A stretch of 64,000 nucleotides of DNA from Candidatus Spongiisocius sp. (GCA_965203035.1 OZ241858.1:2604838-2668837); one strand, 5' to 3'; shown: positions 12,836 through 64,000, counted from the first letter of the stretch. A program made the numbers and translations. The notes: generated by a model not told the origin, from the letters alone.

Positions 12836-14116
12836 TCACGGGCCGAGGGCGGTGAGCGGTAGGACCAGGACCCCGTCGTCGCGGCGGTATCCGTATCCCA
12901 CCGCGGTGATCACTACCAGATTGGCGGGCGATCCGATATGGCGGGCGTCGACGACATCGCGCAGTTTGAGGAGAGACTTGGCCGCGGCCTCGATGGCATC
13001 CTCTCCGCCCAGCTTCACTTCGACCGCGATCCAAGCTCCATCACCTCGCTCGACGATCACGTCGATCTCGAGTCCGTTGCTGTCACGGTAATGGGCCAGG
13101 TGGCCGCGGCCGGCCTCTGCGTAGATCCGCAAGTCGCGCACGACCAGCGACTCGAACAGGAAACCGAAGGAGGACAGATCCTTCCGCAACCTGGCAGGAT
13201 TCGCATCCAACGCAGCCACCGCCAGCGAGGGATCCGCCAGATGGCGCTTCGGCATCCGGCGGAGACGGGCGCGAGACCGCAGCGCCACCGACCAGGCAGG
13301 CACATCCTCTACCACGAACAGGCGCTTCAATGAGTCCAGATAAGCGCCCACCGTGCGGGCATCCATCTGCTTGTCACCCGCTGTGTCACTGGCGAGGGTT
13401 CGCGCCGACGCCTCGGTTGCCACGTTCCGGGCCAGAGACCGCAGGAGGCGGGTCACCCCGATCGGGTCTCGAGCCGGCCCTCCCAGCTGGGCGATGTCTG
13501 TCCGGCACACCTCTTGGAGATACGACCTGGCGTAGTCCTGCGCGACAGTCAGTTCCATCCCCACGCAGGCGGGCCATCCGCCGCGGCACGTTGCCTCGAC
13601 CACGTCTCCCAGGTCGGGATCCGGCCGGGAAACGAACACCGGGTCGGGCAGGAACAGGTCGCTCATCGACACCTGGCCCGACGCCAGGCCCGTCTCGTAG
13701 AGCGACATAGGCCGCATCTGGATTCTCATGATGCGGCCGGTTCCGGTATGACGGGTCAAGTCATCAGCCGGCGTCGCCGAGCCGGTCAGGATGAACCGTC
13801 CCGGCCTGCGGCCGTCGTCCCCGGCTGCTCTCACCTGGTTCCAGATTTCGGGCGCAAGCTGCCATTCGTCCAGCAGTCGCGGCTCGGGGCCGTCCAGCAG
13901 TCCGGCGGGATCGACCTGGGCTGCCAGTCGAGCGTCCGGACTCGACCCGAACATCACCTCGCTGCGAGAGTGCTGCCGCCCCGTGGAGGTCTTCCCGCAC
14001 GCCCGCGGCCCCTCCAGCACCACTGCGGGCATGGCCGCCAGCCCGGCCGTCACCCGGGCATCCACGACCCTGGGCAGGTATGGATCGCGTGTTTGGTCGT
14101 CTGCCAAGAGGGTCAT
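12836..14116 (-). CDS. AAA+ ATPase of the COG1373 / AAA_14 + DUF4143 type (paralogue A)
   Basis: 426 aa with Walker A GPRACGKTS and Walker B-like RLLDEWQ. Clear paralogue of 27171..28442: a 64-aa stretch aligned by eye is 48/64 identical. Confidence 0.85.
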   Translation of the reverse strand: MTLLADDQTRDPYLPRVVDARVTAGLAAMPAVVLEGPRACGKTSTGRQHSRSEVMFGSSPDARLAAQVDPAGLLDGPEPRLLDEWQLAPEIWNQVRAAGDDGRRPGRFILTGSATPADDLTRHTGTGRIMRIQMRPMSLYETGLASGQVSMSDLFLPDPVFVSRPDPDLGDVVEATCRGGWPACVGMELTVAQDYARSYLQEVCRTDIAQLGGPARDPIGVTRLLRSLARNVATEASARTLASDTAGDKQMDARTVGAYLDSLKRLFVVEDVPAWSVALRSRARLRRMPKRHLADPSLAVAALDANPARLRKDLSSFGFLFESLVVRDLRIYAEAGRGHLAHYRDSNGLEIDVIVERGDGAWIAVEVKLGGEDAIEAAAKSLLKLRDVVDARHIGSPANLVVITAVGYGYRRDDGVLVLPLTALGP

Positions 14117-48996: not shown

Positions 48997-50418
48997 TCAA
49001 CCGCCGAGAGCCGCTTCGGCGGCCAGCGCGTCGGCGCCCAGGATCACCACCGCATCCAGACTGTCATCAACCGAGCCCGCCTCGACCAGCCCGAAGCCCA
49101 GCATTTCCACCACCTGCCGACCGATCTCGTGGTCATAAGGACGCACCCTCACCACCGTGCTGTCGAAGTCGAAGGAGGCGGCATCCCCCACTCCAACCGA
49201 TTGTGACACTCCGTCATGGCCCTCGAACCAGGCCGCCCACATCCGGGCTTGCTCGTCGCCACCGTTGCCGTTCAGTACCTTCAGCCGGAGCTCCTGCATC
49301 GGATCCGGCTCCGCGGTCGGCGCAGGCGCACCGGAGAAGGCAGCCAGAACCACGGCTGCCTCCGCCTGTCTCGGATGCAGGTAGTAGACGCCATCCTCCG
49401 TGCTCTCCCATACCGGCAACGAGTAGACGTCGATGTCCGCCCTGTTCAGGCCCCGCGCCGCCCAGCCCAGTTCCAGGAGACGCCGGGTGTCCAGACCGGC
49501 ATCAATGACCAGATGCTCGCCTGCGGCTCGGAGCACGGCCCCGATGTCGAACACGATCGACCAACGCTTGGCGGACTCCAGCATGGCGAACAGCAGGCTC
49601 TGCTGCCGGCGGATCCTGCCCAGGTCGTTGGCGTCGATGCTGACCCAGGCGTTGCCCCGGCGCTCCTGGTAACCCCGGGACCTGGCGTAGGCCAGCGCCT
49701 CCTTACCGTCCAGGAGTTGAACGCCCGCGTCGACGTCGAGACCCGACTTGAGGTCACGGGCCGGATAGGCGAAGGTGATCTCGACTCCGCCCAGCGCGTC
49801 GACGATGCTGGCGAACCCGTAGAAGTCCATCTGGACGTAGTGGTCGATCTGGACTCCGGTCAGTTCCTCGACCGTCGAGACCATCAGGTCGGCCCCGCCC
49901 AGAGCCAGGGCGGCATTCAGCTTGGACGTCCCGTACTCGCCGAGATCGACCTGCAGGTCACGGGGCAGGCTGAGAACCCTGGCCCTGTCGCCGTCGAGGG
50001 TGGCGAGCATGATCACATCGGCCCGGTTGCCGTCCAGCCGGTCGTTGATCTCCAGTTCGTCGGGGAGGCCCTCACGGGTGTCTCCCCCGATCACCAGAAA
50101 GGTGACCGGTGGCAGGGGTTCGGCCGGCACCTCTTCAGCGGCAGCGGCACCTGGGTCGGTAGGGACGGTGGAACCGGCCGGGATGGTCGTGGAGGGCGCC
50201 ACCGGCGTGACGGGCGCCGGATCCCGGGCCAGGCTCGGGATTGAGGTGGTCGGAATGGCCTCGATGGCCTCCCGAGCGCCCACCAGGTAGTAGAGAATCC
50301 CCCCGAACACCACCACATTGACAGCCACCAGGCCGATGATGAGCCGCATCCACCGCCGTCGGGTCGGTGAGGGCACGGGCGCGGTAACGCTGTCCTTGGT
50401 GGGATCTTCGCTGGTCAT
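48997..50418 (-). CDS. LytR-CpsA-Psr (LCP) family cell-wall glycopolymer ligase
   Basis: 473 aa with an N-terminal TM segment, an LCP core (FLVIGGDTR ... DVIMLATLD ... SLPRDL) and a C-terminal LytR_C-like domain. Confidence 0.9.
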   Translation of the reverse strand: MTSEDPTKDSVTAPVPSPTRRRWMRLIIGLVAVNVVVFGGILYYLVGAREAIEAIPTTSIPSLARDPAPVTPVAPSTTIPAGSTVPTDPGAAAAEEVPAEPLPPVTFLVIGGDTREGLPDELEINDRLDGNRADVIMLATLDGDRARVLSLPRDLQVDLGEYGTSKLNAALALGGADLMVSTVEELTGVQIDHYVQMDFYGFASIVDALGGVEITFAYPARDLKSGLDVDAGVQLLDGKEALAYARSRGYQERRGNAWVSIDANDLGRIRRQQSLLFAMLESAKRWSIVFDIGAVLRAAGEHLVIDAGLDTRRLLELGWAARGLNRADIDVYSLPVWESTEDGVYYLHPRQAEAAVVLAAFSGAPAPTAEPDPMQELRLKVLNGNGGDEQARMWAAWFEGHDGVSQSVGVGDAASFDFDSTVVRVRPYDHEIGRQVVEMLGFGLVEAGSVDDSLDAVVILGADALAAEAALGG

Positions 50419-50451
50419 GGGAAGGTCAGACGATATTACCCGCGCCGGCCG

Positions 50452-50640
50452 TCAGCCACAGCACGTGTCCATGGAAGAGCCCGACCAGGGATGATCCGAC
50501 CTAGCCACCTCGCCGACGATCTCGCCCTTCCGTCCCCGGCAGTCCGGACACACCCAAGCCTTCGGCACGCTGGCGCCCTCCACGACCAGCGTCCGGTATT
50601 CGTGACCGCAGTCAGGACAGGCGATTACCAGGACCGGCAC
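50452..50640 (-). CDS. small zinc-ribbon protein (FmdB-like, 2 x CxxC)
   Basis: A GTG at 50640 is preceded by GGAGGA. The product is VPVLVIACPDCGHEY...VCPDCRG. It overlaps the 3' end of the upstream lyase gene by 29 nt. Confidence 0.55.
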   Translation of the reverse strand: MPVLVIACPDCGHEYRTLVVEGASVPKAWVCPDCRGRKGEIVGEVARSDHPWSGSSMDTCCG

Positions 50641-52168
50641 GGCTTCCTCCCTGGTCGTTTGCTTGACCCTCTGCCAAGGCGTCGGCTTCGGCGAGTAGAG
50701 ACTCCACGGCTGCATCCTGGGCGATTCTCGAGGCTGCCGCCCACTCTAGGGAATCCCGGACCCTTAACGACACCGAGGCACAGTGCTCCAGCACGCGGTG
50801 TGGCGCCGATCCACCGATCGAGTTGCGGGAGGCGACGATGGCCGCGACATCCTCGGTGTCCGGGGCGGCCATCGTCGGATCGGTTCGGCCCGGTTCCATC
50901 CCGGCGGAACGGACCGCCTCGGCCAGGCGTGTAGCCGTCACCCGCTCCTCCCCCGCCCTGACCGCTTCCGCCACCGCCCGGGCCACGACCCGGTAGGCGG
51001 TCCGGTAGTCCACACCCTGGTCCAGGACCAGCCGGTCGGCCAGGTCCGTGGCGTTGGTGAAGTTCGTCCCGGCCGCAGCGGCCAGCTTCGCGACGTCGAC
51101 CTTGAGCGAGCCGACAACCTCGGTCGCCAGGGACACCAGCCGGGTGGCCAGTTCTGTCGCCCCGACCACCTCCCCGTACAGGTAGAGCCAGTTGTCGGTG
51201 CGGGCGGACGGAGTTCGCTGGGTAACCATCAAGCCGGTCGTCTTACCGATCAGGGTGCCGCATCCGCCGCGGATCACCGCCAAGGCATAGGGGTTGCGCT
51301 TCTGCGGGAGGAGCACCGAGGCCCGCGACGACGATCCTCCCAGCGTCACGTAGCCGAACTGCGGGCTGGCGAAGATCTCAAGATCCTCTGCCAGGCGATC
51401 GACCGCCAGTGCTGACTGCATCGCCGCAACCCCGCAGTCGATCATCGGATCGCCGGACCACATGCCATCCCGGATATGGGCGGTGGGCTGTTCGAACCCC
51501 AGCCTGGCGGCCATGCGCGACCGGTCCACCGGGATCGGCGTCCCGCCGACACCTCCCGATCCGGCCGGTGATTGGTTGACCAGCCGGTAACAACGGCGGA
51601 TACGGTCGAGGTTCCTGGCCCCCGGCTCGGCGAATCCGGCCAGATAGTGCCCGAATGAGGACGGCTGGGCGGGCTGCAGATAGGTCGTGTCGTTCCACAG
51701 CACATCAGCCAGCTCCTCGGACCGGAGCGCCAGCACGTCAGTCCATCCGGCAACCGCGTCGTGGAGCGCCAGGAGCCGTTCCCGGAGCGCCAAGCGGATG
51801 GCGATACGCCCTGCTTCCCGCCTGGTTCGGCCGGTAGGGAGCCACCCGGCCCCGGTGCCCAGCCGGCGTTCGAGCTCGCGTTCACGGCTGTTGTAGGCGT
51901 CCCCGTACGCCGGGTCATAGGGGAAGGCAGCCGGGTCGGTCGCCCTAAAGTCGAGCAGTTCCCGGCACAGCGCCGCCGCTGCAGCCCTCGGCACCACCCC
52001 CGACTCGGCCAGCTCGAGAACATGGCCGAGGTCGGCCAGGCACAGTCCCTCGTGGAGGATGGCGGCATCCGCCACCTCGAGGCGGTAACCGGCCGCGACC
52101 AATTCCGGGGACGGGCCTGATCCGAGCCGTCCCTCCGCTCCCAGATAGCCTTCCGGCGGCGGGATCAT
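50612..52168 (-). CDS. argininosuccinate-lyase-like member of the aspartase/fumarase (lyase I) superfamily
   Basis: The start MIPPPEGY at 52168 forms an ATGA overlap with the upstream gene. The signature-loop variant is SSRASVLLPQKRNP. The 644-aa track ORF is over-extended. Confidence 0.85.
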   Translation of the reverse strand: MIPPPEGYLGAEGRLGSGPSPELVAAGYRLEVADAAILHEGLCLADLGHVLELAESGVVPRAAAAALCRELLDFRATDPAAFPYDPAYGDAYNSRERELERRLGTGAGWLPTGRTRREAGRIAIRLALRERLLALHDAVAGWTDVLALRSEELADVLWNDTTYLQPAQPSSFGHYLAGFAEPGARNLDRIRRCYRLVNQSPAGSGGVGGTPIPVDRSRMAARLGFEQPTAHIRDGMWSGDPMIDCGVAAMQSALAVDRLAEDLEIFASPQFGYVTLGGSSSRASVLLPQKRNPYALAVIRGGCGTLIGKTTGLMVTQRTPSARTDNWLYLYGEVVGATELATRLVSLATEVVGSLKVDVAKLAAAAGTNFTNATDLADRLVLDQGVDYRTAYRVVARAVAEAVRAGEERVTATRLAEAVRSAGMEPGRTDPTMAAPDTEDVAAIVASRNSIGGSAPHRVLEHCASVSLRVRDSLEWAAASRIAQDAAVESLLAEADALAEGQANDQGGSRAGPGNRLS

Positions 52169-53112
52169 GCCGCCGAACTCCCGCAGAACAGGTTGAGGGT
52201 GCCGCCGGTGACCAGGAACAGGACGGTCCCCTCCACCTCGCCGGCCCGCCGGATCAGGTCTGCAAGGGCGCTGGAACCGTATTCCGGATCGAGGAAGACA
52301 CCCTCGGTGCGCGCCATCATTCCGGCGGCGGCGTCCAAGCCGGCAGGATCGGGATCCAGCTGGTCGTGGATCCGCCACCGGACCGGGTACCGGTGCGCCA
52401 CGTCCAGGAGATCGAGGGATGCCTCGGATATCTCCTCGATGCGCCGCCGACACTCCTCTACGGGCCGATGCACCGCCGCACCCACCACCAGCGGTCCGCC
52501 GGCCCGCCGCCGGTAACCGGCCACCAGGCCGGCCATCGTGCCGCACGACCCCGCCGCCAGCCAGACTGCGTTTGGCCTGATTCCCGCCCTGCGCACCTGG
52601 CCGTCGATCTCCTCGACGGCGTCCACGTATCCCAGCGCCCCGACCGGGCCGGCACCGCCCCTGCCCACCACGTACGGGCGCCGGCCCTCACCGAGCAGGC
52701 GCTCCTCCACCCGTTGCAGGAGCGGGTCGACCGAGGAGCGAACCGGGCTCCTCGTGAAGCGGATCCGGAGGTTGCCCAGCCGGTCGAGCAGGTCAACGCC
52801 GCTGGTCCCGGCCGGCGGCCGGTCCCCGAACAGCACCACCTCGCAGTCCAGGCCTCGGGCGGCCGCCGCGGCCGCCGCGGTAAGTACCCAGTTGGATCGC
52901 GGCCCTCCCCCGGTGACGAATACATCGGCCCCGGCCGCGCGGCAGGCGCCCATATGGAACTCGATCGCCCGAGCCTTGTTACCGCCCAGACCCACGCCGG
53001 TGAGGTCATCGCGCTTGAGCCAGACCGTCAGGCCGAGTTCCTCGGAGAGCCGGGGCGCGAACGTCAAGGGCGTCGGCAGGTTGGCAAGGGCGATCCTGGC
53101 CGGAGCCTTCAA
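52165..53112 (-). CDS. PLP-dependent enzyme of the ACC deaminase / D-cysteine desulfhydrase family
   Basis: 315 aa with LANLPTPL and LKRDDLTGVGLGGNKARAIEF (PLP Lys). Confidence 0.85.
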   Translation of the reverse strand: MKAPARIALANLPTPLTFAPRLSEELGLTVWLKRDDLTGVGLGGNKARAIEFHMGACRAAGADVFVTGGGPRSNWVLTAAAAAAARGLDCEVVLFGDRPPAGTSGVDLLDRLGNLRIRFTRSPVRSSVDPLLQRVEERLLGEGRRPYVVGRGGAGPVGALGYVDAVEEIDGQVRRAGIRPNAVWLAAGSCGTMAGLVAGYRRRAGGPLVVGAAVHRPVEECRRRIEEISEASLDLLDVAHRYPVRWRIHDQLDPDPAGLDAAAGMMARTEGVFLDPEYGSSALADLIRRAGEVEGTVLFLVTGGTLNLFCGSSAA

Positions 53113-54455
53113 CCCGCCGCCCTTATCACCCGATCCACGAACAGGGGGGCTGCACCCATCACCCGGTCGAGGTCCGCCTGCTCCTCGATCTCCGAGCGGT
53201 TCAGGTGGGCCGGAACCCGGGGATCGCTCATCAGCGCATCGGCGAACGACAGCCCTTCCCCGACTCCTCGCATAGCCGCCTCGTAAACGATGTCGTGGGC
53301 GGTGTGCTTACCGACCCGATCGGCCAGCAACCGCATCACCGGCTCGGCGAACACGAAGCCGCGCCGAGCGTCGATGTTGGCCCGCATCCGCTCCTCATCG
53401 GCTTCCAGTCCCTCCACCAGCATCACCGCGTAGCGGGTGGCCGACAGGGTCAGGGCGGCGGCATCCGGAAGGGCGATCCATTCGGCCTTCCAGGCTCGGC
53501 CGTCCCGCTCGTGGAGCTGGACCATCGCCTCGGTCATCACGGCTGCGTCAGCCCGCACCAGCCGGGCGAGGGTGTCCAGGTGCTCCGACAACTCCGGGTT
53601 GCGCTTCTGGGGCATGGTGATGCTCCCCACCGTTCCCTCGATGAAGGGCTCGCGGACCTCACCTATCTCCAGGCGTTGCAGCTCCATGATCTCGTTGCCG
53701 ATCTTGGCGATGGTGGTGGCCACCATCGCGAGCAGGTGTACGAACTCGGCCGGTCCGTCCCGGCTGGTGATCCAGGGTATTGAGGGGACGCCCAAGCCCA
53801 TCCGGCGGGCGAAGGCATCCAGCAGATCGATGGCTCGGTCGCCCCAGAACTCCAGGGTTCCGAGCGCGCCACCCAGCTGGACCACTTCCCACCGGTGCCG
53901 CCCCTCCGCCAGCCTCCGGCGGTGCCGGCCCAGCTCGGCCGCCCACACGGCCGTCTTGAAGCCGAACGGGATGGGCAGTCCCGGCTGGGCGTGGGTACGA
54001 CCCATCATCGGGGTGGTGCGATGGTCACGCGCCAGCACCAGAGCGGCGGCCTCGAGACGGGCCAGATCCCGTTCCAGCAGATCACCGACGGATCGCATCA
54101 CCGTCGCGGTCCAGGTGTCGGTGAGGTCCTGGACCGTCGCTCCGTAGTAGACCCACTCGCGGGCGGACGGCGGGAGGGTGGCCCGCAACACCCGGATGAG
54201 GCCCAGGGTGGAGTGGCCGGTGGCCCGGGTCTCCGCTGCGATCCGATCCAGGTCGATCTCGCCTTCGGTGGCGTAGTCCCTGATGCACCCGGCGGCCTCC
54301 GCGGGGACCAGACCTACCTCGGCCTGCGCCTCGGCGAGCGTGGCGAGGATGTCGAGCCAGGCCCGGAAGCGGGCTTCCTCCCCCAGCAGGGATCGGGCCT
54401 CCTCGGTGCTCCACAGATGCCCGTAGACGACCGAGTCGCCCAGGTGGATGCTCAT
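53109..54455 (-). CDS. adenylosuccinate lyase / 3-carboxymuconate cycloisomerase-like lyase I superfamily enzyme
   Basis: The start MSIHLGDSVVYG at 54455 forms an ATGA overlap with the upstream gene. GRTHAQPG is present, and the signature loop is GSITMPQKRNPELSE. Confidence 0.85.
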   Translation of the reverse strand: MSIHLGDSVVYGHLWSTEEARSLLGEEARFRAWLDILATLAEAQAEVGLVPAEAAGCIRDYATEGEIDLDRIAAETRATGHSTLGLIRVLRATLPPSAREWVYYGATVQDLTDTWTATVMRSVGDLLERDLARLEAAALVLARDHRTTPMMGRTHAQPGLPIPFGFKTAVWAAELGRHRRRLAEGRHRWEVVQLGGALGTLEFWGDRAIDLLDAFARRMGLGVPSIPWITSRDGPAEFVHLLAMVATTIAKIGNEIMELQRLEIGEVREPFIEGTVGSITMPQKRNPELSEHLDTLARLVRADAAVMTEAMVQLHERDGRAWKAEWIALPDAAALTLSATRYAVMLVEGLEADEERMRANIDARRGFVFAEPVMRLLADRVGKHTAHDIVYEAAMRGVGEGLSFADALMSDPRVPAHLNRSEIEEQADLDRVMGAAPLFVDRVIRAAG

Positions 54456-55360
54456 CCGACGGGGACCGGCGCCTCGACACCCGCCAGCAGCCGTAAGGCC
54501 TGCCTCACCTCGTCGAGATTGGCTCCCCAGGGCACCACCGCCCGGTTGCCGTCGAAATCCATACCCCGCTCCAGCATGCAGCACTTGATGAGCCATCGGC
54601 CGTCAGGGTCGGCCTCCTCTACCCGGCGCCTGGGGCAGATGTCGACCTGGGGCGGCTCGCTGCCGTAGAAGTGACGGTGAAACTGCATCGAGCGCTCGCA
54701 TCCGATCATCACCCACTCCTCGGCGGCAGCCGGACGGGTGTCGAGGTACGCCGTGTCGGCGGCCAACTCGGTGCCCGCTCCCCGGCACGGAAGGAGGTAG
54801 GACTCCGACGGTGCAGTGGCCGCCAGGTCGCCGAAGGTCACCTCGTTGAGCACCAGATCCACCGGCGGTAGGTCCTCGTCGAACTCCACCGCTTGCTGGG
54901 CCTGGACCAGCAACTTGGCCGGCGCCGGCGGGGTGACTTCGGTGACGAAGATGCGCACCGGGTCAGGCTCCCAGATGAAGTTGATGTGCTCGAACTGGCC
55001 CTTTACCACGAACCCGGAGACACCGGGGCGTCCGTGACGTCTCGCCGCACCGGCCAGCGCGGTGGCATTCCCCACGTCGACTGCGGGGGCTTCGATGAGT
55101 TGGGTGCGGTCCGGACCCGACCAGACCTCGACACCCACCACGGGCACGAACAGGTCGTCGGACCGGGCCCGGGCTACCGACGCCAGGCCCACGGCTTCGT
55201 CGTGGATGAGGGCGATGTAGTCGGTGCGCCGGTAGACCTCCCGGCCCATGAGATACTCCCGCATGAAGGCGGGGTCCGGTAGCTCGTCGACGTGCTGGAC
55301 CGACAACCCCCGGTAGGGGTGGGCGCGGGCGTTCGGTGAGGGTTGCTCGGCTACCAGCAT
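54452..55360 (-). CDS. orphan 302-aa protein with C-terminal Cys-rich module; first gene of the coupled lyase/PLP operon
   Basis: An ORF with good coding composition. The C-terminal third carries LLPCRG, IGCERS, DICPRR and IKCCMLERG. No family recognised. Confidence 0.65.
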   Translation of the reverse strand: MLVAEQPSPNARAHPYRGLSVQHVDELPDPAFMREYLMGREVYRRTDYIALIHDEAVGLASVARARSDDLFVPVVGVEVWSGPDRTQLIEAPAVDVGNATALAGAARRHGRPGVSGFVVKGQFEHINFIWEPDPVRIFVTEVTPPAPAKLLVQAQQAVEFDEDLPPVDLVLNEVTFGDLAATAPSESYLLPCRGAGTELAADTAYLDTRPAAAEEWVMIGCERSMQFHRHFYGSEPPQVDICPRRRVEEADPDGRWLIKCCMLERGMDFDGNRAVVPWGANLDEVRQALRLLAGVEAPVPVG

Positions 55361-55444
55361 GCCATCACGGTCCGGATGCGCAACGCATGCGGTGATTCTA
55401 GGAGCATCACGTCCCCTCCCGTCGGCGCCGCCCTCCGCCGAGAT

Positions 55445-55663
55445 CTACGTATGGGATAGTGACTGGAACGCCGAGAGCAGAATCGCTGTCGCGATGCCGA
55501 CAACACCTACCACAATGCCCAACATCCAGTAGGTCGATATGGTGATCCGCCGCTCGACGGTGAGCAGGGCGTCGGCTATGGCCGTTCGGTTGTCGGCCTT
55601 CACCACTTCGTCCTTGGCGTCTACCAACTCTCGGAACCCTTCCGGATATGACTTGGCCGTCAT
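55445..55663 (-). CDS. small single-pass membrane protein
   Basis: 72 aa. The polar N-terminal half is followed by one TM segment (WMLGIVVGVVGIATAILLSAF). Confidence 0.45.
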   Translation of the reverse strand: MTAKSYPEGFRELVDAKDEVVKADNRTAIADALLTVERRITISTYWMLGIVVGVVGIATAILLSAFQSLSHT

Positions 55664-56081
55664 GGGGCACTCCTTCCTTCAACCGGCGCGCCACCCCGGC
55701 GAAGACCCTTGCCTACCCGTCGCTTAGTAACGGTAAGAAGCATACCACCTTCTAAAACCTCCAGCACGCCACTGCGGCACGTTGGAGAATCATGTGGGAC
55801 CACGACCGGCCCTGCCAAAGCGTGGGGCCGCCCCGGAGAGGGCGGCCCCGCACGGTTCGGCTCTGCTAGGGCGTGTTCACGCTACGCGCGTTCGTTCGCT
55901 ATCGCGGGTCCCGTGGTCGGTCTGTGGGGCGGCGGTGGGATATGGCGCCGCCAGCGGCGTCTATGGCAAGGACTGCTGACGAAGGCGTACCCGCAGGGTA
56001 CGTTGAGGAGGCAGGACGCAGCCAGAGTCGCCGCTGGTGGTCCAGAGCACGCCGACCGCAACACAGACCGACCACGATCAA

Positions 56082-57188
56082 CTACTTCAGTTCGCTCCGG
56101 ACGATCTCGGCGCCGGAGACCATCGCGTGGAGCTTGTCCTGGGCGATGTAGCGCTGCAGCAGGATGAGCCCGCAGTCGGTGGTGACGCCGAGCTGGTTGG
56201 CCGGCACGTGCTCGAGCAGTCTCCGGATCCGCCCGGCGACCTGCTCCGCCGTCTCGGTGATGGTCGACTTGACGTCGATCACACCGGCCCAGAACTGGAC
56301 GTTCTCGGGTACCGGATTGTCGCGGATCACTTCGAGGCCGGACAGGTCATCCGAGCGCCGCCCGCAGTTCTCGAGGTTGAGAACACTGATGTTGGCCTCG
56401 TAGGACTTGGGCACCACGGAGGCGGTCGCGGATGGCTCGTCGCCCTCCCGGATGGTCAGATCGAAGATCTCACCGGCGCCGGCCGTATCGTCCGGGAAGT
56501 AGGCGGGGGTGCCGCCCCAGTTGCCCCAACAGATGTGGACGATGATCTTGGCGTTCTGGACACCTTCCACAGCCCGGTTGAAGGCCTCGATGGCCCAGGG
56601 TTCGTAGAAGTACGGCCAGGTGAACTCGTCCAGCTGGATGAAGTCGATCCCCATGGCGTCGACCTCCAGGATGTCCTCGTTCACGGCCGCGGCGATGGCC
56701 ATGGCCCGATCCTCGGCGGCCTCGTAGTGGAGATCGTTGGTGGCCTGGGCGAGGACCTGGATGCCGGTGTACTGGACCTTGGTGGCCTTGTTCGTGGCCT
56801 GCTTCAGGGCCCGGGCCTGCTCGACCATGATGGCGCCCCGCCGCTTGACCTCCTGGGTGAGCGTGCCGGCATGGAGGCGGCTGTAGATCGGGAAGCCCAG
56901 GAAGCCGCCCTTCAGGTCGTATCCCAACCGCTTGTAGTAGTAGTAGAGAGCCTGATCGGCGTAGTTGTCGCCGTGGAGCCGCCCATCGGTGATGATGTCG
57001 AGACCGGCGTTCTCCTGGTCCCTGGCAAGCGCTCCCACCGCGTCTTCCAACGCTTCCCGGATGTAGGCATCCGGCGGCTCCTGGTCCCCCGTCCAGTCCC
57101 GTACGCAGTTGGCGTCCCACCACCTCGGGTTCGGATAGTTCCCGACCATCGAAGTCGGAATCAATACCTCTTCACCTTTGATCTGCAC
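56082..57188 (-). CDS. cobalamin-independent methionine-synthase-like (MetE C-terminal / UROD-fold) methyltransferase
   Basis: 368 aa carrying only the single catalytic-type domain. Zn-ligand-like motifs are IVHICWGNW and TTDCGL. Confidence 0.8.
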   Translation of the reverse strand: MQIKGEEVLIPTSMVGNYPNPRWWDANCVRDWTGDQEPPDAYIREALEDAVGALARDQENAGLDIITDGRLHGDNYADQALYYYYKRLGYDLKGGFLGFPIYSRLHAGTLTQEVKRRGAIMVEQARALKQATNKATKVQYTGIQVLAQATNDLHYEAAEDRAMAIAAAVNEDILEVDAMGIDFIQLDEFTWPYFYEPWAIEAFNRAVEGVQNAKIIVHICWGNWGGTPAYFPDDTAGAGEIFDLTIREGDEPSATASVVPKSYEANISVLNLENCGRRSDDLSGLEVIRDNPVPENVQFWAGVIDVKSTITETAEQVAGRIRRLLEHVPANQLGVTTDCGLILLQRYIAQDKLHAMVSGAEIVRSELK

Positions 57189-57382
57189 ATCCCCTCCATT
57201 CGAGAGAGAGATTCACGAGCCGCCCTTAGTTAGGTCCTGCGACCCGTGCTGCGGGTCCTGCGCGCCTCCTTTATTGGACGATGGGTACCAGTCCGGACCC
57301 TTATGTGACGAGGGTAGCAAAGTGCGGAATACCGGATCGGGTCGCGCCGAGCCCCGGTACCTCATCGATCCCGGATGGTCGG

Positions 57383-58123
57383 TCAACGCAGGGACCAGCC
57401 GCCGTCCACGACGAGCCCGTGGCCGGTCATGTATGAGAGGTTGCCCGACGCGAGGAGGACGATGGCCTCGGCGATGTCCTCGGGCTGGGCGACCCGGCCG
57501 AGGGGGATGCCGGCCTCGATGGCTGCCCTGAGGTCGGGCTGGTCGAGCCGCCATTTCGTCATCGGCGTCTCCGCCATCCCAGGACACACCGCGTTGGACC
57601 GGATACCGTCACCGGCGTAGTCGAGGGCTATCGACCGGGCCAGCAGCAGGGCCGCCGCCTTGGAGACCGAATACGCCGACCGGGCCGGGAACGGGTCCAT
57701 CCCCGCCACCGATGCCACGGTGATTATGTGCCCGGACCGGCGGGGAACCATCGATGAGAGGGCCGCACGCGAACACAGGTAGGCACCCCTCACGTTGACC
57801 CCCATGACCCGGTCCCACTCGTCGACCGGAGTCTCGTGGAGGCGGGTGGCTTCCAGGGAGCCGGTGATCCCGGCGTTGTTGATCAGCACGTCGACCGGAC
57901 CCAGTGTCTCCTCCACGGCGCCGAAAGCCTCAGAGACGTCGCCTGCCACGGCTATGTCCACTCCCAACCCGAGTCCGTCGCCCGCCGCTTCGGAGGCGCC
58001 GGCGGCGTCGAGGTCGAACACGCCCAGCCGGAACCCCTCGCTCCTAAGGCGCTCGCATGTCGCCAGCCCTATACCCGACCCACCTCCGGTCACCACAGCC
58101 ACCCTTGGCGCCTGGTTCGCCAT
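57383..58123 (-). CDS. short-chain dehydrogenase/reductase
   Basis: The start MANQAPRVAVVTGGGSGIG at 58123 has GGAGG 7 nt upstream. YSVSKAA matches YxxxK. The 389-aa track ORF is over-extended. Confidence 0.9.
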   Translation of the reverse strand: MANQAPRVAVVTGGGSGIGLATCERLRSEGFRLGVFDLDAAGASEAAGDGLGLGVDIAVAGDVSEAFGAVEETLGPVDVLINNAGITGSLEATRLHETPVDEWDRVMGVNVRGAYLCSRAALSSMVPRRSGHIITVASVAGMDPFPARSAYSVSKAAALLLARSIALDYAGDGIRSNAVCPGMAETPMTKWRLDQPDLRAAIEAGIPLGRVAQPEDIAEAIVLLASGNLSYMTGHGLVVDGGWSLR

Positions 58124-58237
58124 CCATACCTCCAGACAGAATCGAGATCCCACAGGATACGTCCGCGCGCCCATGACGAACCACATGACGGGCAGGCACG
58201 ACCCGCCAGGGCCGCGCCGCGACCCTCCCCGTTTACC

Positions 58238-59734
58238 ATGGCCGCCCAGATGACCCCGCCCCGAGCCGTCGCTTCCTTGCGGTCCCTCGTTCTTCCCCGT
58301 CTCGGCTGGATCGTGGCCTCGCTGATCGCCCTGACGGTGCTCGTGGCCTGGTTGCCCGACCTGGATCTCCCTCTCGGCGACAGTGATGACGGACGGCTTC
58401 TCGCCCGCTTCGGCTTGGCGGCCCGCAACTTCTGGGAACTCGGACCGCTCGAGTCCGGTCTCGGCGCCCGCGTCGATCCGTACATCCGGGGCGAGTACGG
58501 GATCGAACCGGGGGCGGCAGCCCCTGTGGAGGCCACGACCTACGCCCACCACCCACCGCTCCAGGTCTTCCTGGCGATCCTCTCGGTCGGGATGATGGGA
58601 GACAGCCCGGTCTCGCAGCGCATCGTGGGCTTCCTGATCGGGGCGGCGACGGTGCTGTTCATGGCCGCTTTGGGCCGGTCCGTAGGCATGAGCTGGGGTC
58701 CGATACTCCTAGCCACGGGCGCCATGGCCGCCACCGGGTTCTTCTTCGTTTACGCAAGGATGGGCGGGGGCTTCTCGCTGATCGCGGCCTCCCTCGCCAT
58801 GGTCGCGTACCTGCGGAAAGTGGACAACCCACCCAGGTGGATCCTGCCGGTCGCGGCGGTCCTGTCCTTCGTCACGGCCATGCAGTCCTGGATAGCAATC
58901 GCCGCGCTGGGCCTGGCCGTAATCTGGCTGTTCACCGCCAAGCGCACGGCGGCGGCCACCCGGTGGGTGGCGTGCGGCGCCATCGCAGGCTTGGCAGTCA
59001 CCGGGATATGGCTCCTGGCCAACACCCCCACCGACGAGTTGGCCAGACAGGTGACCACCCGGGTCGACACCGCCGACTACACGATGGGAGAGTTCCTCGC
59101 CCGCCAGTGGCGCCTCGCAGGAGAGCTGACCCCCGTGTGGTTACGCGCCCTGGCCCCCTTCGCTCTGGTCGCCGGCCTAATGGATCGCCGCACCCGGATA
59201 CCGGTGGCCATCACGCTGGCAGTGGCGGCCGCCTTGACGTTCGGGACGAGCCAGGGCGCCTGGGTTCACCGCCTCTGGAACTTCCCCTGGCTGGCCCCGG
59301 TCACCATCGGGACCATCGCCCTCGGCGACATGGTGCGGCGAAGGATCAACCACCGTTGGGCCGCGGTCCTCGGCGCGGCGGGTGCGATCGTGGTGGCAGT
59401 CACGTTCTACGGTCTCTTCCACGGACCGACCCGGGACTCATACCTGCTGGCACCCGCCCGGGCAGGCGCCATCGTCGCCCAGGCACAGGCGCCGGAGGGA
59501 ATCATGTGGGTGACCCCCGGCATCCCGGCGCCCCGCTGGGTCTCCTACTACCTGGACGTCCCGGTTTGGACGATCGCGGAGCGCTACGCCGACCGGGTCG
59601 GCCCGGACGACCTCGTGCTGGCGCGCACCGACAGGAACCTGGATGGGATCGTCCTCCCCGAGGACTCCATACTCGAGGACGGGCGCTACCGGTTGGTGGA
59701 TGGCGGCCTGATCGAGGACCCCGGCGAGTCCTGA
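58238..59734 (+). CDS. polytopic membrane protein, ArnT/PMT-like GT-C glycosyltransferase candidate
   Basis: From ATG 58238 the product is 498 aa with about 11 hydrophobic segments. An acidic first loop (LPLGDSDDGR) and a C-terminal soluble tail are present. The 632-aa track ORF is over-extended. Confidence 0.6.
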   Translation: MAAQMTPPRAVASLRSLVLPRLGWIVASLIALTVLVAWLPDLDLPLGDSDDGRLLARFGLAARNFWELGPLESGLGARVDPYIRGEYGIEPGAAAPVEATTYAHHPPLQVFLAILSVGMMGDSPVSQRIVGFLIGAATVLFMAALGRSVGMSWGPILLATGAMAATGFFFVYARMGGGFSLIAASLAMVAYLRKVDNPPRWILPVAAVLSFVTAMQSWIAIAALGLAVIWLFTAKRTAAATRWVACGAIAGLAVTGIWLLANTPTDELARQVTTRVDTADYTMGEFLARQWRLAGELTPVWLRALAPFALVAGLMDRRTRIPVAITLAVAAALTFGTSQGAWVHRLWNFPWLAPVTIGTIALGDMVRRRINHRWAAVLGAAGAIVVAVTFYGLFHGPTRDSYLLAPARAGAIVAQAQAPEGIMWVTPGIPAPRWVSYYLDVPVWTIAERYADRVGPDDLVLARTDRNLDGIVLPEDSILEDGRYRLVDGGLIEDPGES

Positions 59735-59805: not shown

Positions 59806-60573
59806 ATGAAACTAAGAGGACGCGCCGCCCTCATCACCGGCGCCGGGTCGGGCATAGGCAGGGCCACCGCCGAACTGTTCGCGAGCGAGGGTGCCGGCGT
59901 TGCGATACTCGATCGCGACGCATCGGCTGCCGGAGCAACTGCCTCGGCCATCTCGGCCACGGGCGCGGAGGCCCATCCGGTAGTTGCAGACGTATCCTCA
60001 TCGGAGGAGATCTCCCACGCCGTGGCAAGCGCCACCCGGCTCCTCGGTCGCCTCGACATCGTCTACAACAACGCCGGCGTCGGCTCCACCGGTTCGGTGG
60101 TGGACGCCACCGAGGAGGACTGGGATCGCTGCTTCGCCGTCAACGCGAAAGGCACCTACCTCACGTCGCAGGCCGCCATTCCTCATCTGGAAGCAGCCGG
60201 CGGGGGGTCGATCATCAACCAGGCGTCCGTAGCCGCCCTGGTCGGTATCCAGGGGTTCGCCGCCTACTGCGCCGCCAAGGGTGCGGTGGTCTCCCTCACC
60301 CGCGCCATGGCGATCGACCTTGCTCCGATGGGGATCCGGGTTAACGCCCTCTGCCCGGGCACCGTCTACACGCCGCTCATGGAACCGCTCATGCGTGAAC
60401 GCGGAGGCGGGAGTATCGAGCGTGGCCTGGAGATCACGGCCGCCAAGTACCCGATAGGGCGCCTCGGAACGCCTGTGGAGATAGCCAACGCCGCGCTGTT
60501 CCTGGCATCGGATGACGCCAGCTTCGTCACCGGCACCGTCTTCACGGTGGATGGCGGCATGACCGCCCAGTAG
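59806..60573 (+). CDS. short-chain dehydrogenase/reductase
   Basis: MKLRGRAALITGAGSGIGRA, with NNAG and YCAAKGA (YxxxK). Confidence 0.9.
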   Translation: MKLRGRAALITGAGSGIGRATAELFASEGAGVAILDRDASAAGATASAISATGAEAHPVVADVSSSEEISHAVASATRLLGRLDIVYNNAGVGSTGSVVDATEEDWDRCFAVNAKGTYLTSQAAIPHLEAAGGGSIINQASVAALVGIQGFAAYCAAKGAVVSLTRAMAIDLAPMGIRVNALCPGTVYTPLMEPLMRERGGGSIERGLEITAAKYPIGRLGTPVEIANAALFLASDDASFVTGTVFTVDGGMTAQ

Positions 60574-60675
60574 GAGGGTGCTGAAAAATGTCCGGTTGGC
60601 CCGACACGTCAGCAACGAAGACCCTGCTCGATCCATCCCCGGCCAACCCATCCCCGTCTTTTTCAGCACCCTCCT
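60572..60675. repeat. 104-nt intergenic element bounded by perfect 17-bp inverted repeats
   Basis: aggagggtgctgaaaaa (60572-60588) pairs with tttttcagcaccctcct (60659-60675). A nested ggttggcc (60594-60601) / ggccaacc (60641-60648) pair lies inside. Confidence 0.8.
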
Positions 60676-60687
60676 GGAACCGCCCCG

Positions 60688-61602
60688 ATGCCGGTACACC
60701 TCGCGCCTGACAAGCTGGCCGACCTCGATACCGCGGTCGCGATGGTGCAACCCGGCTCGATGGTGGCACTGGGGGGAGGCCTCTCGGCCCGGCTTCCGAT
60801 GGCGCTGGTCCGGGGGTTGATCAGGGCCGGGATCGGAGACCTCCATGTGGTCGGTTCCGCCCACTCCATCGACGTGGACCTGCTGGCCGCGGCCGGAGCG
60901 ATCTCGATCTGCGAGGAGAGCTACGTGGGCTACGAGCAGGATCACGGTCTGGCGCCGGCCTTCCGGAGAGCGGCTCAGGAGGGGCTGCTCGAAGCAAGGG
61001 AGAGCTGCTGCGACACCATCCTCACCCAGCTCCGGGCCGCCGAGATGGGCCTTTCCTTCCTTCCCGTCCAAGGCGTCAAGGGGACCGACATCGAGAGGCT
61101 GCATCCCGAGTACTCCCGGGTGACCTGTCCCCTCACCGGGCACGAGTACGTGGCCGTGCCGCCCCTGGCGCCGGACGCGGCGGTGGTCCACGCCCCCATC
61201 GGTGATCGTCGGGGGAACCTCCACTTCGAGCAGCCCTACGTCCTCGACGAACGGTTCGCCATAGCCTCTGCCATGACGATCGCCACCGTCGACCGGATCG
61301 TCTCCACCGAAGAGGTGGCGGCGGCGGGCATCGTCATCCCGTACTACCGGGTCGCGGCGGTGGTAGAGGCGCCGTTCGGCGCCCATCCCAGCTCCTGCTA
61401 TCCCGGCTACGCGTACGACCGGGCTCATCTGGCCACGTGGGTGGCCGCCGCCCGGACGGCGGAAGGCGCGGAGAGCTACCTGCGCCGCTACGTCACCGGG
61501 GTAGACGAGGACGGCTACCGCCGGCTGATCGGCGCCGACCGGCTGGAGCATCTGACCAGCTATCGGGCTTCCGACGGCGCATGGATGGAGATGTTCCGGT
61601 GA
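60688..61602 (+). CDS. CoA-transferase, subunit A-like (glutaconate/3-oxoacid CoA-transferase family)
   Basis: 304 aa beginning AVAMVQPGSMVALGGGLSARLPMALVRGLIRAG, with the family I CoA-transferase alpha pattern. Confidence 0.8.
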   Translation: MPVHLAPDKLADLDTAVAMVQPGSMVALGGGLSARLPMALVRGLIRAGIGDLHVVGSAHSIDVDLLAAAGAISICEESYVGYEQDHGLAPAFRRAAQEGLLEARESCCDTILTQLRAAEMGLSFLPVQGVKGTDIERLHPEYSRVTCPLTGHEYVAVPPLAPDAAVVHAPIGDRRGNLHFEQPYVLDERFAIASAMTIATVDRIVSTEEVAAAGIVIPYYRVAAVVEAPFGAHPSSCYPGYAYDRAHLATWVAAARTAEGAESYLRRYVTGVDEDGYRRLIGADRLEHLTSYRASDGAWMEMFR

Positions 61603-62408
61603 GCTATCGATTCGGTCTTGACGAGCTCTTCGTGGCCGAGCTCGCCCGAACCGTCCGGGATGCCGAGGTTGTCTTCCACGGCTTCGGTAGCCCGTGCGCC
61701 ACGGTCGCCATGCACCTCGCCAAACGCACCCATGCCCCGAATGCCCTGCTGATCGAGGGCGCCACCTACGCGGTCAACCCCTCTCCCGCATTCATCCCAC
61801 CCACCAGCAACGACCACTCCCTGAAGCGCGGAGCGGCCTACTCGATGCGCTTCGAGGAGGCGTTCGACATGTCGGTCCGAGGCGACGTGGACCACATGTT
61901 CCTATCGGGACTCCAGATCGACTCCTACGGGAACACCAACGTCACCGCGGTGGGCACGATGCCCCGCCCGAAGGTGAAGCTGGGTGGAGGGGGCGGCGGA
62001 TGCAACATGTCGGCCACCATCAAACGGCTCACCCTGTGGACCACCAACCACCGGTCGGGGCGGTGCCTGGTCGAGAAGTGCGACTTCATCACGGACATCG
62101 GCCACCTGACCCCGGAGGGGACCCGGTCCGAGCTCGGCTACACCGGAAGCGGCCCCGAGGTGCTTGTCACCGAACTGGCTGTGTTCGACTACCCCGAGGG
62201 TCGGGCCCGGCTCCGGAGGCTGTTTCCCGATGTGACACTCGGCGACGTGACCGCCGCCACCGGCTTCGAGTTCGCCGTGGCGCCCGATCTGGCAACCGTG
62301 GATACGCCTTCCCGGCACCAGATCGAACTGGTGAGGGCCATCGATCCCCTCAACGTACGCCGGCGGGAGTTCGGCCCTGCCGAGCTTGAGCGGACCTTCT
62401 CCCTATGA
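61599..62408 (+). CDS. CoA-transferase, subunit B-like
   Basis: The GTG at 61599 overlaps the subunit A stop (GTGA). The 269-aa product contains GFGSPCATVAMHLAK ... LSGLQIDSYGNTN. Confidence 0.75.
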   Translation: MSYRFGLDELFVAELARTVRDAEVVFHGFGSPCATVAMHLAKRTHAPNALLIEGATYAVNPSPAFIPPTSNDHSLKRGAAYSMRFEEAFDMSVRGDVDHMFLSGLQIDSYGNTNVTAVGTMPRPKVKLGGGGGGCNMSATIKRLTLWTTNHRSGRCLVEKCDFITDIGHLTPEGTRSELGYTGSGPEVLVTELAVFDYPEGRARLRRLFPDVTLGDVTAATGFEFAVAPDLATVDTPSRHQIELVRAIDPLNVRRREFGPAELERTFSL

Positions 62409-64000
62409 CCCTCGACTCGTTTTTCGAACCGGCGCGCGTCGCCGTCGTAGGGGCGTCTGACCGTCCCGGCAAGGTCGGTTCGGTTATCTGGAAGAACCTG
62501 GCGGACTTTGACGGCGAGGTCATCCCCGTAACCACTTCGGCGGACCGCGTCGGGGGCGTGCGGTCGGTCCCGAGCCTGGCCGAGATAGAGGGGAAGGTCG
62601 ACCTGGCGATCCTGGTCGTGCCCGCCCGGGCGGCGCCGGTCATCGCCCGCCAGGCCGCCGCCAAGGGAGTGGGCGGGATCGTGGTACTCGCGGGAGGGTT
62701 CGCCGAGACCGGGCCGGCCGGGGCCGCCCTCCAGGCCGAGCTGGTCGAGGCGGCCGGTCCGGTCCGGATCGTCGGACCCAACTGCTTCGGTATCCAGAAC
62801 ATCGCACGAGGCCTCAATGCGTCCATCACGATGGCAGGTGAGATCGAGGCGGGGCAGGTAGCCCTGGTCACTCAGTCGGGCGCGTACGGGATGGCGATCC
62901 ACTCGCTGGCGCTGGACGAGAACCTGCGCTTCGGAAAGGTGTATTCATCCGGCAACAAGGCCGACATCGGCGACCACGAGGTCATCCGCTACTTCCATGA
63001 GGATCCCGGCACCGGCATCGTCTGCCTGCTGGCGGAGTCGGTGACTGACGGGGCCGAACTGGCCGCGGCCATCCGGGCTGCCAGCCCGACCATGCCGGTG
63101 ATCGTCACCAAGACCGGTCGGTCGGAGGCCGGGGCTCGAGCGGCACTGTCCCACACCGGGGCGCTTGGCACTGACGACGCCGTGTTCCGGGCCGCCATGG
63201 GCCAGGCCGGGGCGATCACCGTCCGGTCTGGTCTGGAGATGCTCGACGTGGCGCGGGTGCTGGCCACCCAGCCCCTGCCGCAAGGCAATCGGGCGGCCAT
63301 CATCACCAACTCGGGCGGGGTGGGTGTCGAGCTGGCCGACATGCTCGAGGACGAGGGCATGGAGGTCCCCGAATTGTCGCCCGGCCTCAGGGATCGCATC
63401 GCCGAACGCCTGCCCCCGATCGGCAGCGCCCGCAACCCGGTGGACATGACTCCCATCTGGTCACGGTTCGCCGAGCTCTACCCGTGGTTGACCGCCACGC
63501 TGGCCCGCTCCGGCGAGGTGGATCTGGTGATCCCGGTCCTGCTCCAGCGAGCCGCCATGGACGAGGCCACTCTGGTCGCGCTGCGGGACACCGTGGCGGA
63601 GCTGAGGGCCGGGGGAAACCGGGTACCTGTCTACTGCTGCTGGGTGACCCCTAGAGAGGGTCGCGGCATGGCCGGGATGCTCCAGTCGGCGGGGATTCCC
63701 TGCCTGGAGTGGCCGGAGCGCGTAGCTCGAGCCGTCGGGCACGCGGTGCGCTACGCCGCCAAGCGCGGGAGCATCACCCCGCCGGGGCGGGTGGAACCCG
63801 CCGAACCCATCGGCCTGGCGGACGGACCGGTCCCCGCCACCGGAGCCGCCCGTGTCCTGGCCGGCTACGGGATCAGCACCGTCGAGAGCACGTTGTGCAC
63901 CACCGCGGACGCAACTCGAGCGGCGGCGGAGCGCCTGGCGGGACCGGTGGTGATGAAGACCGCCGTCCCCTCCGTCGCTCATCGGGCCGAGGTCGACGGG
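62405..64000 (+). CDS. ADP-forming acyl-/acetyl-CoA synthetase (fused CoA-binding + ATP-grasp), 3'-truncated by window edge
   Basis: Absent from the ORF track because there is no stop in the window. ATG 62405 overlaps the upstream stop (ATGA). The translation is MTLDSFFEPARVAVVGASDRPGKVG..IVGPNCFGI..LSHTGALGTDD..VVMKTAVPSVAHRAEVDG. Confidence 0.85.
   Translation, partial: MTLDSFFEPARVAVVGASDRPGKVGSVIWKNLADFDGEVIPVTTSADRVGGVRSVPSLAEIEGKVDLAILVVPARAAPVIARQAAAKGVGGIVVLAGGFAETGPAGAALQAELVEAAGPVRIVGPNCFGIQNIARGLNASITMAGEIEAGQVALVTQSGAYGMAIHSLALDENLRFGKVYSSGNKADIGDHEVIRYFHEDPGTGIVCLLAESVTDGAELAAAIRAASPTMPVIVTKTGRSEAGARAALSHTGALGTDDAVFRAAMGQAGAITVRSGLEMLDVARVLATQPLPQGNRAAIITNSGGVGVELADMLEDEGMEVPELSPGLRDRIAERLPPIGSARNPVDMTPIWSRFAELYPWLTATLARSGEVDLVIPVLLQRAAMDEATLVALRDTVAELRAGGNRVPVYCCWVTPREGRGMAGMLQSAGIPCLEWPERVARAVGHAVRYAAKRGSITPPGRVEPAEPIGLADGPVPATGAARVLAGYGISTVESTLCTTADATRAAAERLAGPVVMKTAVPSVAHRAEVDG

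Follow-up and report, generated by a model that had tools for sequence, protein, structure and literature searches.

Assignment of the four-gene operon

Analysis of a 64,000-nt stretch of DNA from Candidatus Spongiisocius sp. (GCA_965203035.1, OZ241858.1:2604838-2668837), hereafter the window, revealed four coupled minus-strand genes that are very probably xcbA-xcbD-xcbE-xcbC, genes for all but one of the five enzymes in the bacterial pathway to coenzyme M (CoM). The window (G000:C1:2604838-2668837) belongs to a single-contig genome of 3.67 Mb that is 96.75% complete, and positions given below are those of the window unless another locus is named. All five Xcb enzymes, XcbA to XcbE, are encoded in this genome, four in the operon and the remaining one, XcbB/ComA, 11 kb away. 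The assignment is based on family membership, hallmark residues, synteny and distribution, each of which was observed directly. Each Xcb step has been shown in vitro, and the pathway was reconstituted from Xanthobacter autotrophicus Py2 in 2022 (Wu et al. 2022, PMC9457059): XcbB/ComA forms phosphosulfolactate, XcbC converts it to sulfoacrylate, XcbD adds cysteine, the pyridoxal phosphate (PLP) enzyme XcbE yields sulfoethanethioaldehyde, and the [2Fe-2S] protein XcbA produces CoM.

The four genes, designated A to D in the direction of transcription, were found at 54452-55360 (A, 302 aa, ATG start), 53109-54455 (B, 448 aa, ATG), 52165-53112 (C, 315 aa, TTG) and 50612-52168 (D, 518 aa, ATG), exactly where a preliminary description, made from the sequence alone, had placed them. 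That description joined all four by ATGA overlaps; these are present at 54452-54455 and 52165-52168, and the overlap at 53109-53112 reads TTGA, still a 4-nt start/stop overlap, therefore the start of gene C is TTG and not ATG. The three motifs to which it drew attention, GSITMPQKRNP, GGNKAR and SSRASVLLPQKRNP, were all found, and the small zinc-ribbon open reading frame (ORF) that it saw overlapping the 3′ end of the operon is real and is conserved in 17 related loci. Since the coupled arrangement was seen again in related genomes, it is not due to chance. A promoter and terminator scan of the region 50200-58400 gave nothing above chance level.

Comparison with protein family models showed that, in NCBIfam, all four proteins match their corresponding Xcb models best, with XcbA and XcbD exceeding the curated cut-offs. 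The 302-aa product of gene A, previously regarded as an orphan, matches Pfam family DUF7714 (E 8e-79) as well as the NCBIfam model for XcbA.

The two lyases

Gene B (53109-54455, minus strand) is assigned as xcbD, encoding a predicted adenylosuccinate-lyase-like 3-sulfopropionylcysteine synthase. Its product scored 672 bits with NCBIfam model NF052536 (cut-off 600) and 262 bits with the purB model (cut-off 326), and shared 58% identity with XcbD of Nocardioides sp. JS614 and 45% with that of Xanthobacter. In the alignment, a GSITMPxKxNPE loop is common to the operon protein and the characterised XcbD, whereas PurB has GSSAMPHK. Gene D (50612-52168, minus strand) is assigned as xcbC, encoding a predicted argininosuccinate-lyase-like phosphosulfolactate phosphate-lyase for which NF052535 was the best match (402 bits, cut-off 575); the argH model gave 224 bits (cut-off 279.5), and identities were 58% to JS614 XcbC and 40% to Xanthobacter XcbC. 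The loop of gene D that had seemed unusual, S-R-A-S-V-L-L-P-Q-K-R-N-P, is an XcbC hallmark and occurs in the characterised XcbC also. According to the alignment made in this analysis, from which the hallmark residues were derived, gene D carries RAS-x-(L/I)-(L/M)-PQKRNP, has T-R-R-E versus S-R-N-D in ArgH and, like XcbC, has a Tyr replacing the ArgH His of T-H-L-Q.

Both lyases contain Lyase_1 together with ASL_C2 or ADSL_C domains and thus have the aspartase/fumarase superfamily fold in common with ArgH and PurB, from which they differ in the signature loops (RASxLLPQKRNP in XcbC versus GSSAMPHKKNP, and GSITMP in XcbD versus GSSAMP). In a maximum-likelihood tree, gene D grouped with the XcbC proteins of Xanthobacter and JS614 (SH-aLRT 92), apart from the genome's ArgH, and gene B grouped with Xanthobacter XcbD (SH-aLRT 97), apart from the genome's PurB. 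The tree came from a quick search and the ArgH and PurB branches are long; therefore, only the coarse grouping was used. Elsewhere the genome encodes, separately from the operon, both a true ArgH, scoring 460 bits, and a true PurB, scoring 373 bits, each above cut-off. The preliminary description had argued that the operon does not serve arginine or purine metabolism, and had named as evidence to the contrary a clustering of the lyases with ArgH and PurB in a genome lacking other copies. Its argument is borne out, as other copies exist and the operon lyases branch away from them and score below the equivalog cut-offs.

A dedicated small-molecule pathway had also been proposed, and this is what was found, the pathway very probably being that of CoM biosynthesis. 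The chemistry envisaged for it was different, namely the making or breaking of C-N bonds on succinyl groups in a route to or from an N-succinylated or aspartate-derived amine (aminopolycarboxylate or opine-like) with release of fumarate. Membership of both lyases in the aspartase/fumarase superfamily accords with such a route. However, the characterised members of the XcbC and XcbD clades use phosphosulfolactate, and sulfoacrylate with cysteine, respectively (PMC9457059); from that work and the family assignments, XcbC eliminates phosphate and XcbD forms a C-S bond. The genomic context, moreover, consists of CoM-using enzymes and comA. On the grounds of Xcb clade membership and CoM context the N-succinyl reading was rejected, and we consider it almost certainly wrong.

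XcbE and XcbA

Gene C (52165-53112, minus strand, TTG start) is probably xcbE and encodes a PLP enzyme with the fold of D-Cys desulfhydrase and 1-aminocyclopropane-1-carboxylate (ACC) deaminase. NF052537 was its best match with 230 bits, below the cut-off of 450, followed by CuyA with 195. The protein was 46% identical to JS614 XcbE and 41% identical to Xanthobacter XcbE, and the lysine motif GGNK was preserved in all homologues aligned.

Gene A (54452-55360, minus strand), assigned as xcbA, would encode the [2Fe-2S] sulfoethanethioaldehyde reductase responsible for the last step of CoM synthesis. Its product scored 360 bits with NF052538 (cut-off 150) and shared 54% identity with the Nocardioides JS614 protein and 41% with the characterised Xanthobacter XcbA. 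It has only five Cys residues (192, 221, 242, 260 and 261), all of which, together with His125 and His228, were invariant across 25 homologues, including the Xanthobacter protein with its nine Cys. As judged from this conservation, the Cys residues would be able to hold the predicted [2Fe-2S] cluster. The nine Cys of the characterised enzyme are thereby narrowed to five invariant ones plus two His, which helps to locate the Fe-S and catalytic sites. Comparison of a confident structural model of XcbA (predicted local distance difference test, pLDDT, 89) with the PDB gave no clear solved relative; the best Foldseek match had an E value of 3e-3 and a template modelling (TM) score of at most 0.23, and VIA-align Z scores were at most 7.1 and confined to the generic alpha/beta C-terminal half.

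Neighbouring genes for CoM use

Upstream of the operon, genes resembling those of the epoxide carboxylase system were identified. The nearest of these (56082-57188, minus strand; Pfam Meth_synt_2) encodes a 368-aa XecA-like epoxyalkane:CoM transferase (EaCoMT) that is 77% identical to Xanthobacter XecA over its full length and preserves the zinc-ligand motifs H-x-C and TTDCG. It is followed by a short-chain dehydrogenase/reductase (SDR) gene (57383-58123, minus strand), the product of which resembles R-2-hydroxypropyl-CoM dehydrogenase (48% to XecD), retains both sulfonate-binding arginines of XecD (R-S-A-Y and W-R-L-D) and is 58% identical to the JS614 SDR adjoining the homologue there of 2-KPCC (2-ketopropyl-CoM oxidoreductase/carboxylase). 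A second SDR (59806-60573, plus strand) resembles S-HPCDH (S-2-hydroxypropyl-CoM dehydrogenase, XecE), with 53% identity over 194 aa, and JS614 SDR1 (61%); the alignment by itself does not show stereospecificity.

Further along the plus strand lie genes for CoA-transferase subunit A (60688-61602; Pfam CoA_trans; 65% to the CoA-transferase of the JS614 etn cluster), CoA-transferase subunit B (61599-62405; 68% to the second JS614 CoA-transferase), which overlaps subunit A by GTGA, and an ADP-forming acyl-CoA synthetase (62405-64000; Pfam and NCBIfam matches; 50% to the JS614 enzyme), which ends about 480 nt past the window end. Beyond the window, the acyl-CoA synthetase gene is followed by that for 2-KPCC (L002:4576-6159; 66% to XecC), which gave 790 bits to PDB entry 1mo9 and has an intact redox C-x4-C pair and FLNPTH motif, the latter in place of a His-Glu dyad. 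Translationally coupled to it is comA/xcbB (L002:6156-7022), the product of which scored 300 bits with TIGR03849 (cut-off 280) and was 56% identical to Xanthobacter XcbB and 37% to JS614 ComA. The second SDR, CoA-transferase, acyl-CoA synthetase, 2-KPCC and comA genes are transcribed divergently from the xcb and EaCoMT genes.

Several other genes were noted in and around this island. A 498-aa polytopic membrane protein with no family match is encoded between the two SDR genes (58238-59734, plus strand); it probably lies outside the pathway, being missing from the same position in several relatives. A gene for an F420-type luciferase-like (LLM) oxidoreductase is located about 6.3 kb past the window end (L002:10281-11219, minus strand); its product is 52% identical to that of the LLM gene beside the JS614 xcb genes, and it adjoins comA in locus L019. 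Such an oxidoreductase is a recurring accessory of CoM islands. F420 biosynthesis genes are present in the window at approximately 44.2-45.9 kb. A third SDR (L002:12085-12849, plus strand) is a paralogue of the one at 59806-60573, shares 57% identity with JS614 SDR1 and adjoins a dienelactone-hydrolase-like gene. Elsewhere in the genome, the gene at G000:C1:370419-372104 (minus strand) encodes a true sulfoacetaldehyde acetyltransferase, Xsc, with a score of 860 bits, and there are many paralogues among thiamine diphosphate (ThDP) enzymes. Xsc fits the use of taurine and other sulfonates and could supply sulfite for CoM synthesis internally.

Comparison with known CoM systems

Compared with the xcbABCDE genes on plasmid pXAUT01 of Xanthobacter Py2, the genome has all five families, the hallmarks of the lyase loops, the PLP lysine and the five XcbA Cys, and its xcb genes are likewise found beside a Py2-type EaCoMT (77%), 2-KPCC (66%) and two SDRs. 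It differs in that the gene order is A-D-E-C instead of A-B-C-D-E, comA stands apart and is coupled to 2-KPCC, and the xcb genes are chromosomal in a member of Acidimicrobiia, at 40-45% identity to those of the proteobacterial plasmid; in addition, no alkene monooxygenase was found in the genome.

The order xcbA-D-E-C is that of Nocardioides sp. JS614 (plasmid pNOCA01) and Mycolicibacterium chubuense NBB4 (PMC8727900), with 46-58% identity, and clusters of the JS614 type come from CoM-dependent degraders of ethene and vinyl chloride (PMC8727900). In JS614 the cluster reads comA-xcbA-xcbD-xcbE-xcbC with comA first, whereas here comA is 11 kb away. The two-subunit CoA-transferase (65% and 68%), acyl-CoA synthetase (50%), SDRs and F420-type LLM oxidoreductase (52%) are also common to JS614 and this genome. 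In contrast, EaCoMT, 2-KPCC and ComA are here of the Xanthobacter (propylene) type, no etnABCD genes are present, and the zinc-ribbon gene and a small membrane-protein ORF are additional to the JS614 and NBB4 gene sets. The CoM-using enzymes and ComA being of the Xanthobacter type, and the xcbA/D/E/C and CoA-activation genes being of the JS614 type, the island is therefore a mosaic. With the archaeal (methanogen) ComA-ComE pathway only the first step, ComA, is common (TIGR03849, 300 bits here); the later steps are replaced by XcbC, XcbD, XcbE and XcbA (PMC9457059).

Small ORFs, repeats and transcription

The zinc-ribbon gene (50452-50640, minus strand) encodes a 62-aa protein with six Cys. Its start codon, a GTG at 50640, is preceded by the Shine-Dalgarno sequence GGAGGA, and the gene shares 29 nt with the 3′ end of gene D, including the xcbC stop. 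Family matches were weak (Zn-ribbon, rubredoxin and FmdB). In 17 Acidimicrobiia loci the gene is found after the xcb genes, with 52-97% identity, and in 12 aligned copies C8, C11, C31, C34, C60 and C61, an HPW motif and the C-terminal CC pair were invariant; it is absent from the xcb clusters of Xanthobacter, JS614, Dormibacterota, Kribbella and Chloroflexota. A complex prediction for XcbA with this protein gave a score of 0.02, which speaks neither for nor against their pairing. Genes 3′ of the zinc-ribbon gene have cell-envelope functions (LCP and UDP-glucose dehydrogenase) and do not belong to the pathway.

Upstream of xcbA, a 72-aa small membrane-protein ORF (55445-55663, minus strand) starts with an ATG behind GGAAGGAG. 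No family match was obtained for it, and it was found at the same position with 66-78% identity in the four closest loci (L003, L006, L007 and L018).

Within the 418-nt gap that separates this ORF from EaCoMT upstream, a dispersed repeat of approximately 215 bp (55866-56081, identified by blastn) directly follows the EaCoMT stop. In the genome, 60 blastn matches to it were detected, more than 15 of them near full length at 86-94% identity, and some copies are in tandem, around 5.3-5.8 kb and 3.554-3.555 Mb of the genome. Sponge-metagenome contigs from other strains jump from 55852/55865 to 56082/56087 and do not have the repeat; depth peaks there. Another multi-copy sequence, a 104-nt inverted-repeat element with 27 blastn matches in the genome, is situated between the SDR and CoA-transferase genes (60572-60675).

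Sponge DNA runs cover the whole island. Among RNA data, EaCoMT is covered by contigs of two sponge metatranscriptome runs of one study, at 98-99% and approximately 90% identity. These contigs hint only weakly at transcription of EaCoMT; no expression is claimed for the xcb genes, and uncovered parts were taken as no evidence.

Proposed pathway

By analogy to the Xanthobacter case, CoM synthesis would begin with ComA joining sulfite to phosphoenolpyruvate (PEP) to form phosphosulfolactate, from which XcbC would remove phosphate to give sulfoacrylate. XcbD would then put L-cysteine across the double bond, and the resulting 3-sulfopropionyl-cysteine would undergo decarboxylation and cleavage by XcbE with PLP to sulfoethanethioaldehyde, which XcbA would reduce to CoM. 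In the use of CoM, a short epoxide, most likely epoxypropane because the enzymes are of the Py2 type, would be opened by EaCoMT with CoM. The two SDRs would oxidise 2-hydroxypropyl-CoM, 2-KPCC would reductively cleave and carboxylate 2-ketopropyl-CoM to acetoacetate with regeneration of CoM, and the product may finally be activated by the CoA-transferase and acyl-CoA synthetase.

Several points weigh against this assignment. XcbE (230 versus 450 bits) and XcbC (402 versus 575 bits) fall under the narrow "exception" cut-offs of NCBIfam, and comA is located outside the operon. RNA contigs over xcbD and xcbC are fragments of 160-220 nt with approximately 92% identity. All enzymatic activities are predictions based on the Xanthobacter reconstitution, and which epoxide is used is likewise inferred. 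A search for soluble diiron monooxygenase (SDIMO, PF02332) found none in this genome, the same search being positive on the JS614 and Py2 plasmids, and a search for copper-dependent membrane monooxygenase (CuMMO, PF02461 and PF04896), made without a positive control, found none in this genome either; the source of the epoxide is therefore left unexplained.

The low scores of XcbC and XcbE and their 40-41% identity to the Xanthobacter enzymes would also fit production by the four enzymes of a sulfonated thiol or thioether that is related to CoM but distinct from it. We regard this as very unlikely, since the enzymes retain the hallmark residues, their genes have as neighbours those of an EaCoMT and a 2-KPCC with 77% and 66% identity to CoM-specific enzymes, and the equally diverged clusters of the JS614 type belong to CoM-dependent ethene and vinyl chloride degraders (PMC8727900). 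The system is thus a known one, bacterial CoM biosynthesis together with epoxide carboxylase, in a lineage and habitat for which no published description was found; a search of the literature for links of sponges or Acidimicrobiia to CoM or epoxide metabolism gave nothing relevant. Because a pathway solved in 2022 accounts for the operon, no new enzymology is opened by it.

Distribution and possible epoxide sources

The XcbA homologues nearest in sequence (67-89% identity) are encoded by metagenome-assembled genomes titled Acidimicrobiia or Candidatus Spongiisociaceae, and some of the isolate names suggest sponge origin. Near-identical DNA was detected in runs of eight studies, mostly labelled sponge metagenome. 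Synteny of the island, with the zinc-ribbon gene included, extends over at least 16 species of sponge Acidimicrobiia, and XcbA was found in 23 of the 29 genomes of the Genome Taxonomy Database (GTDB) family. In loci L009, L010, L012 and L014, from four related species, xcbC is gone from between xcbE and the zinc-ribbon gene (at approximately 13190-13260 in each); loss of the gene was considered and rejected, XcbC (373-384 bits) being encoded elsewhere in those genomes.

Ten of the 29 family genomes encode an SDIMO, and all ten have XcbA. They comprise seven of eight in genus g4, two of two in g3 and one of 11 in the genus of the present genome, in which XcbA is retained in nine of 11. The SDIMO loci L041-L044 are from genomes G025, G010, G011 and G008, respectively. 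The alpha subunit of G010 resembles those of toluene/o-xylene monooxygenase (ToMO) and toluene 4-monooxygenase (T4MO) (557 bits); its identity to XamoA is 46%. The distance between SDIMO and CoM island is more than 1 Mb in G008, G011 and G013, and approximately 0.3 Mb in G010. From these gene contents, the family overall looks capable of epoxidation of alkenes or aromatics followed by CoM-dependent carboxylation, and this genus looks to keep the epoxide and CoM part alone.

CoM may, then, be made in this genus for something other than alkene assimilation, such as scavenging or detoxifying epoxides produced by others, or another role of the thiol. The epoxide makers would be the SDIMO-bearing sister genera, or sponge ammonia oxidisers through co-oxidation. 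The genus retains XcbA far more often than SDIMO, as counted above, and the present genome yielded neither SDIMO, by a search that had a positive control, nor CuMMO; furthermore, alongside near-identical contigs the sponge DNA runs contain others that are 90-95% alike and may represent related strains. Nevertheless, the epoxide could be supplied within the cell by an unrecognised oxygenase of another kind (P450, flavin or F420-linked LLM), and the full carboxylase and CoA-activation set looks suited to assimilation more than to mere protection. A role other than alkene assimilation is credible, though we rate it below an even chance.

A more specific proposal, which we put forward tentatively and as less likely than not, is that the island of this genus operates with no alkene monooxygenase of its own, and that the genus lives on, or detoxifies, small epoxides released by its neighbours, the candidates being sister genera with ToMO/Xamo-like SDIMOs or ammonia oxidisers. 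The family-specific six-Cys 62-aa protein would then be an additional component, hitherto undescribed, that might for instance serve XcbA as a redox partner. If this is true, it would constitute an epoxide cross-feeding link within the sponge holobiont.

Bacterial use of CoM has so far been described mostly in a few cultured alkene degraders. What is modestly new here is that in an uncultured family of sponge symbionts a complete island for CoM synthesis and use is near-universal (23 of 29 species) and vertically kept. Most of this family, including the present genome, is without the monooxygenase that normally feeds the pathway, and the origin of epoxides in sponges thus becomes a testable question.

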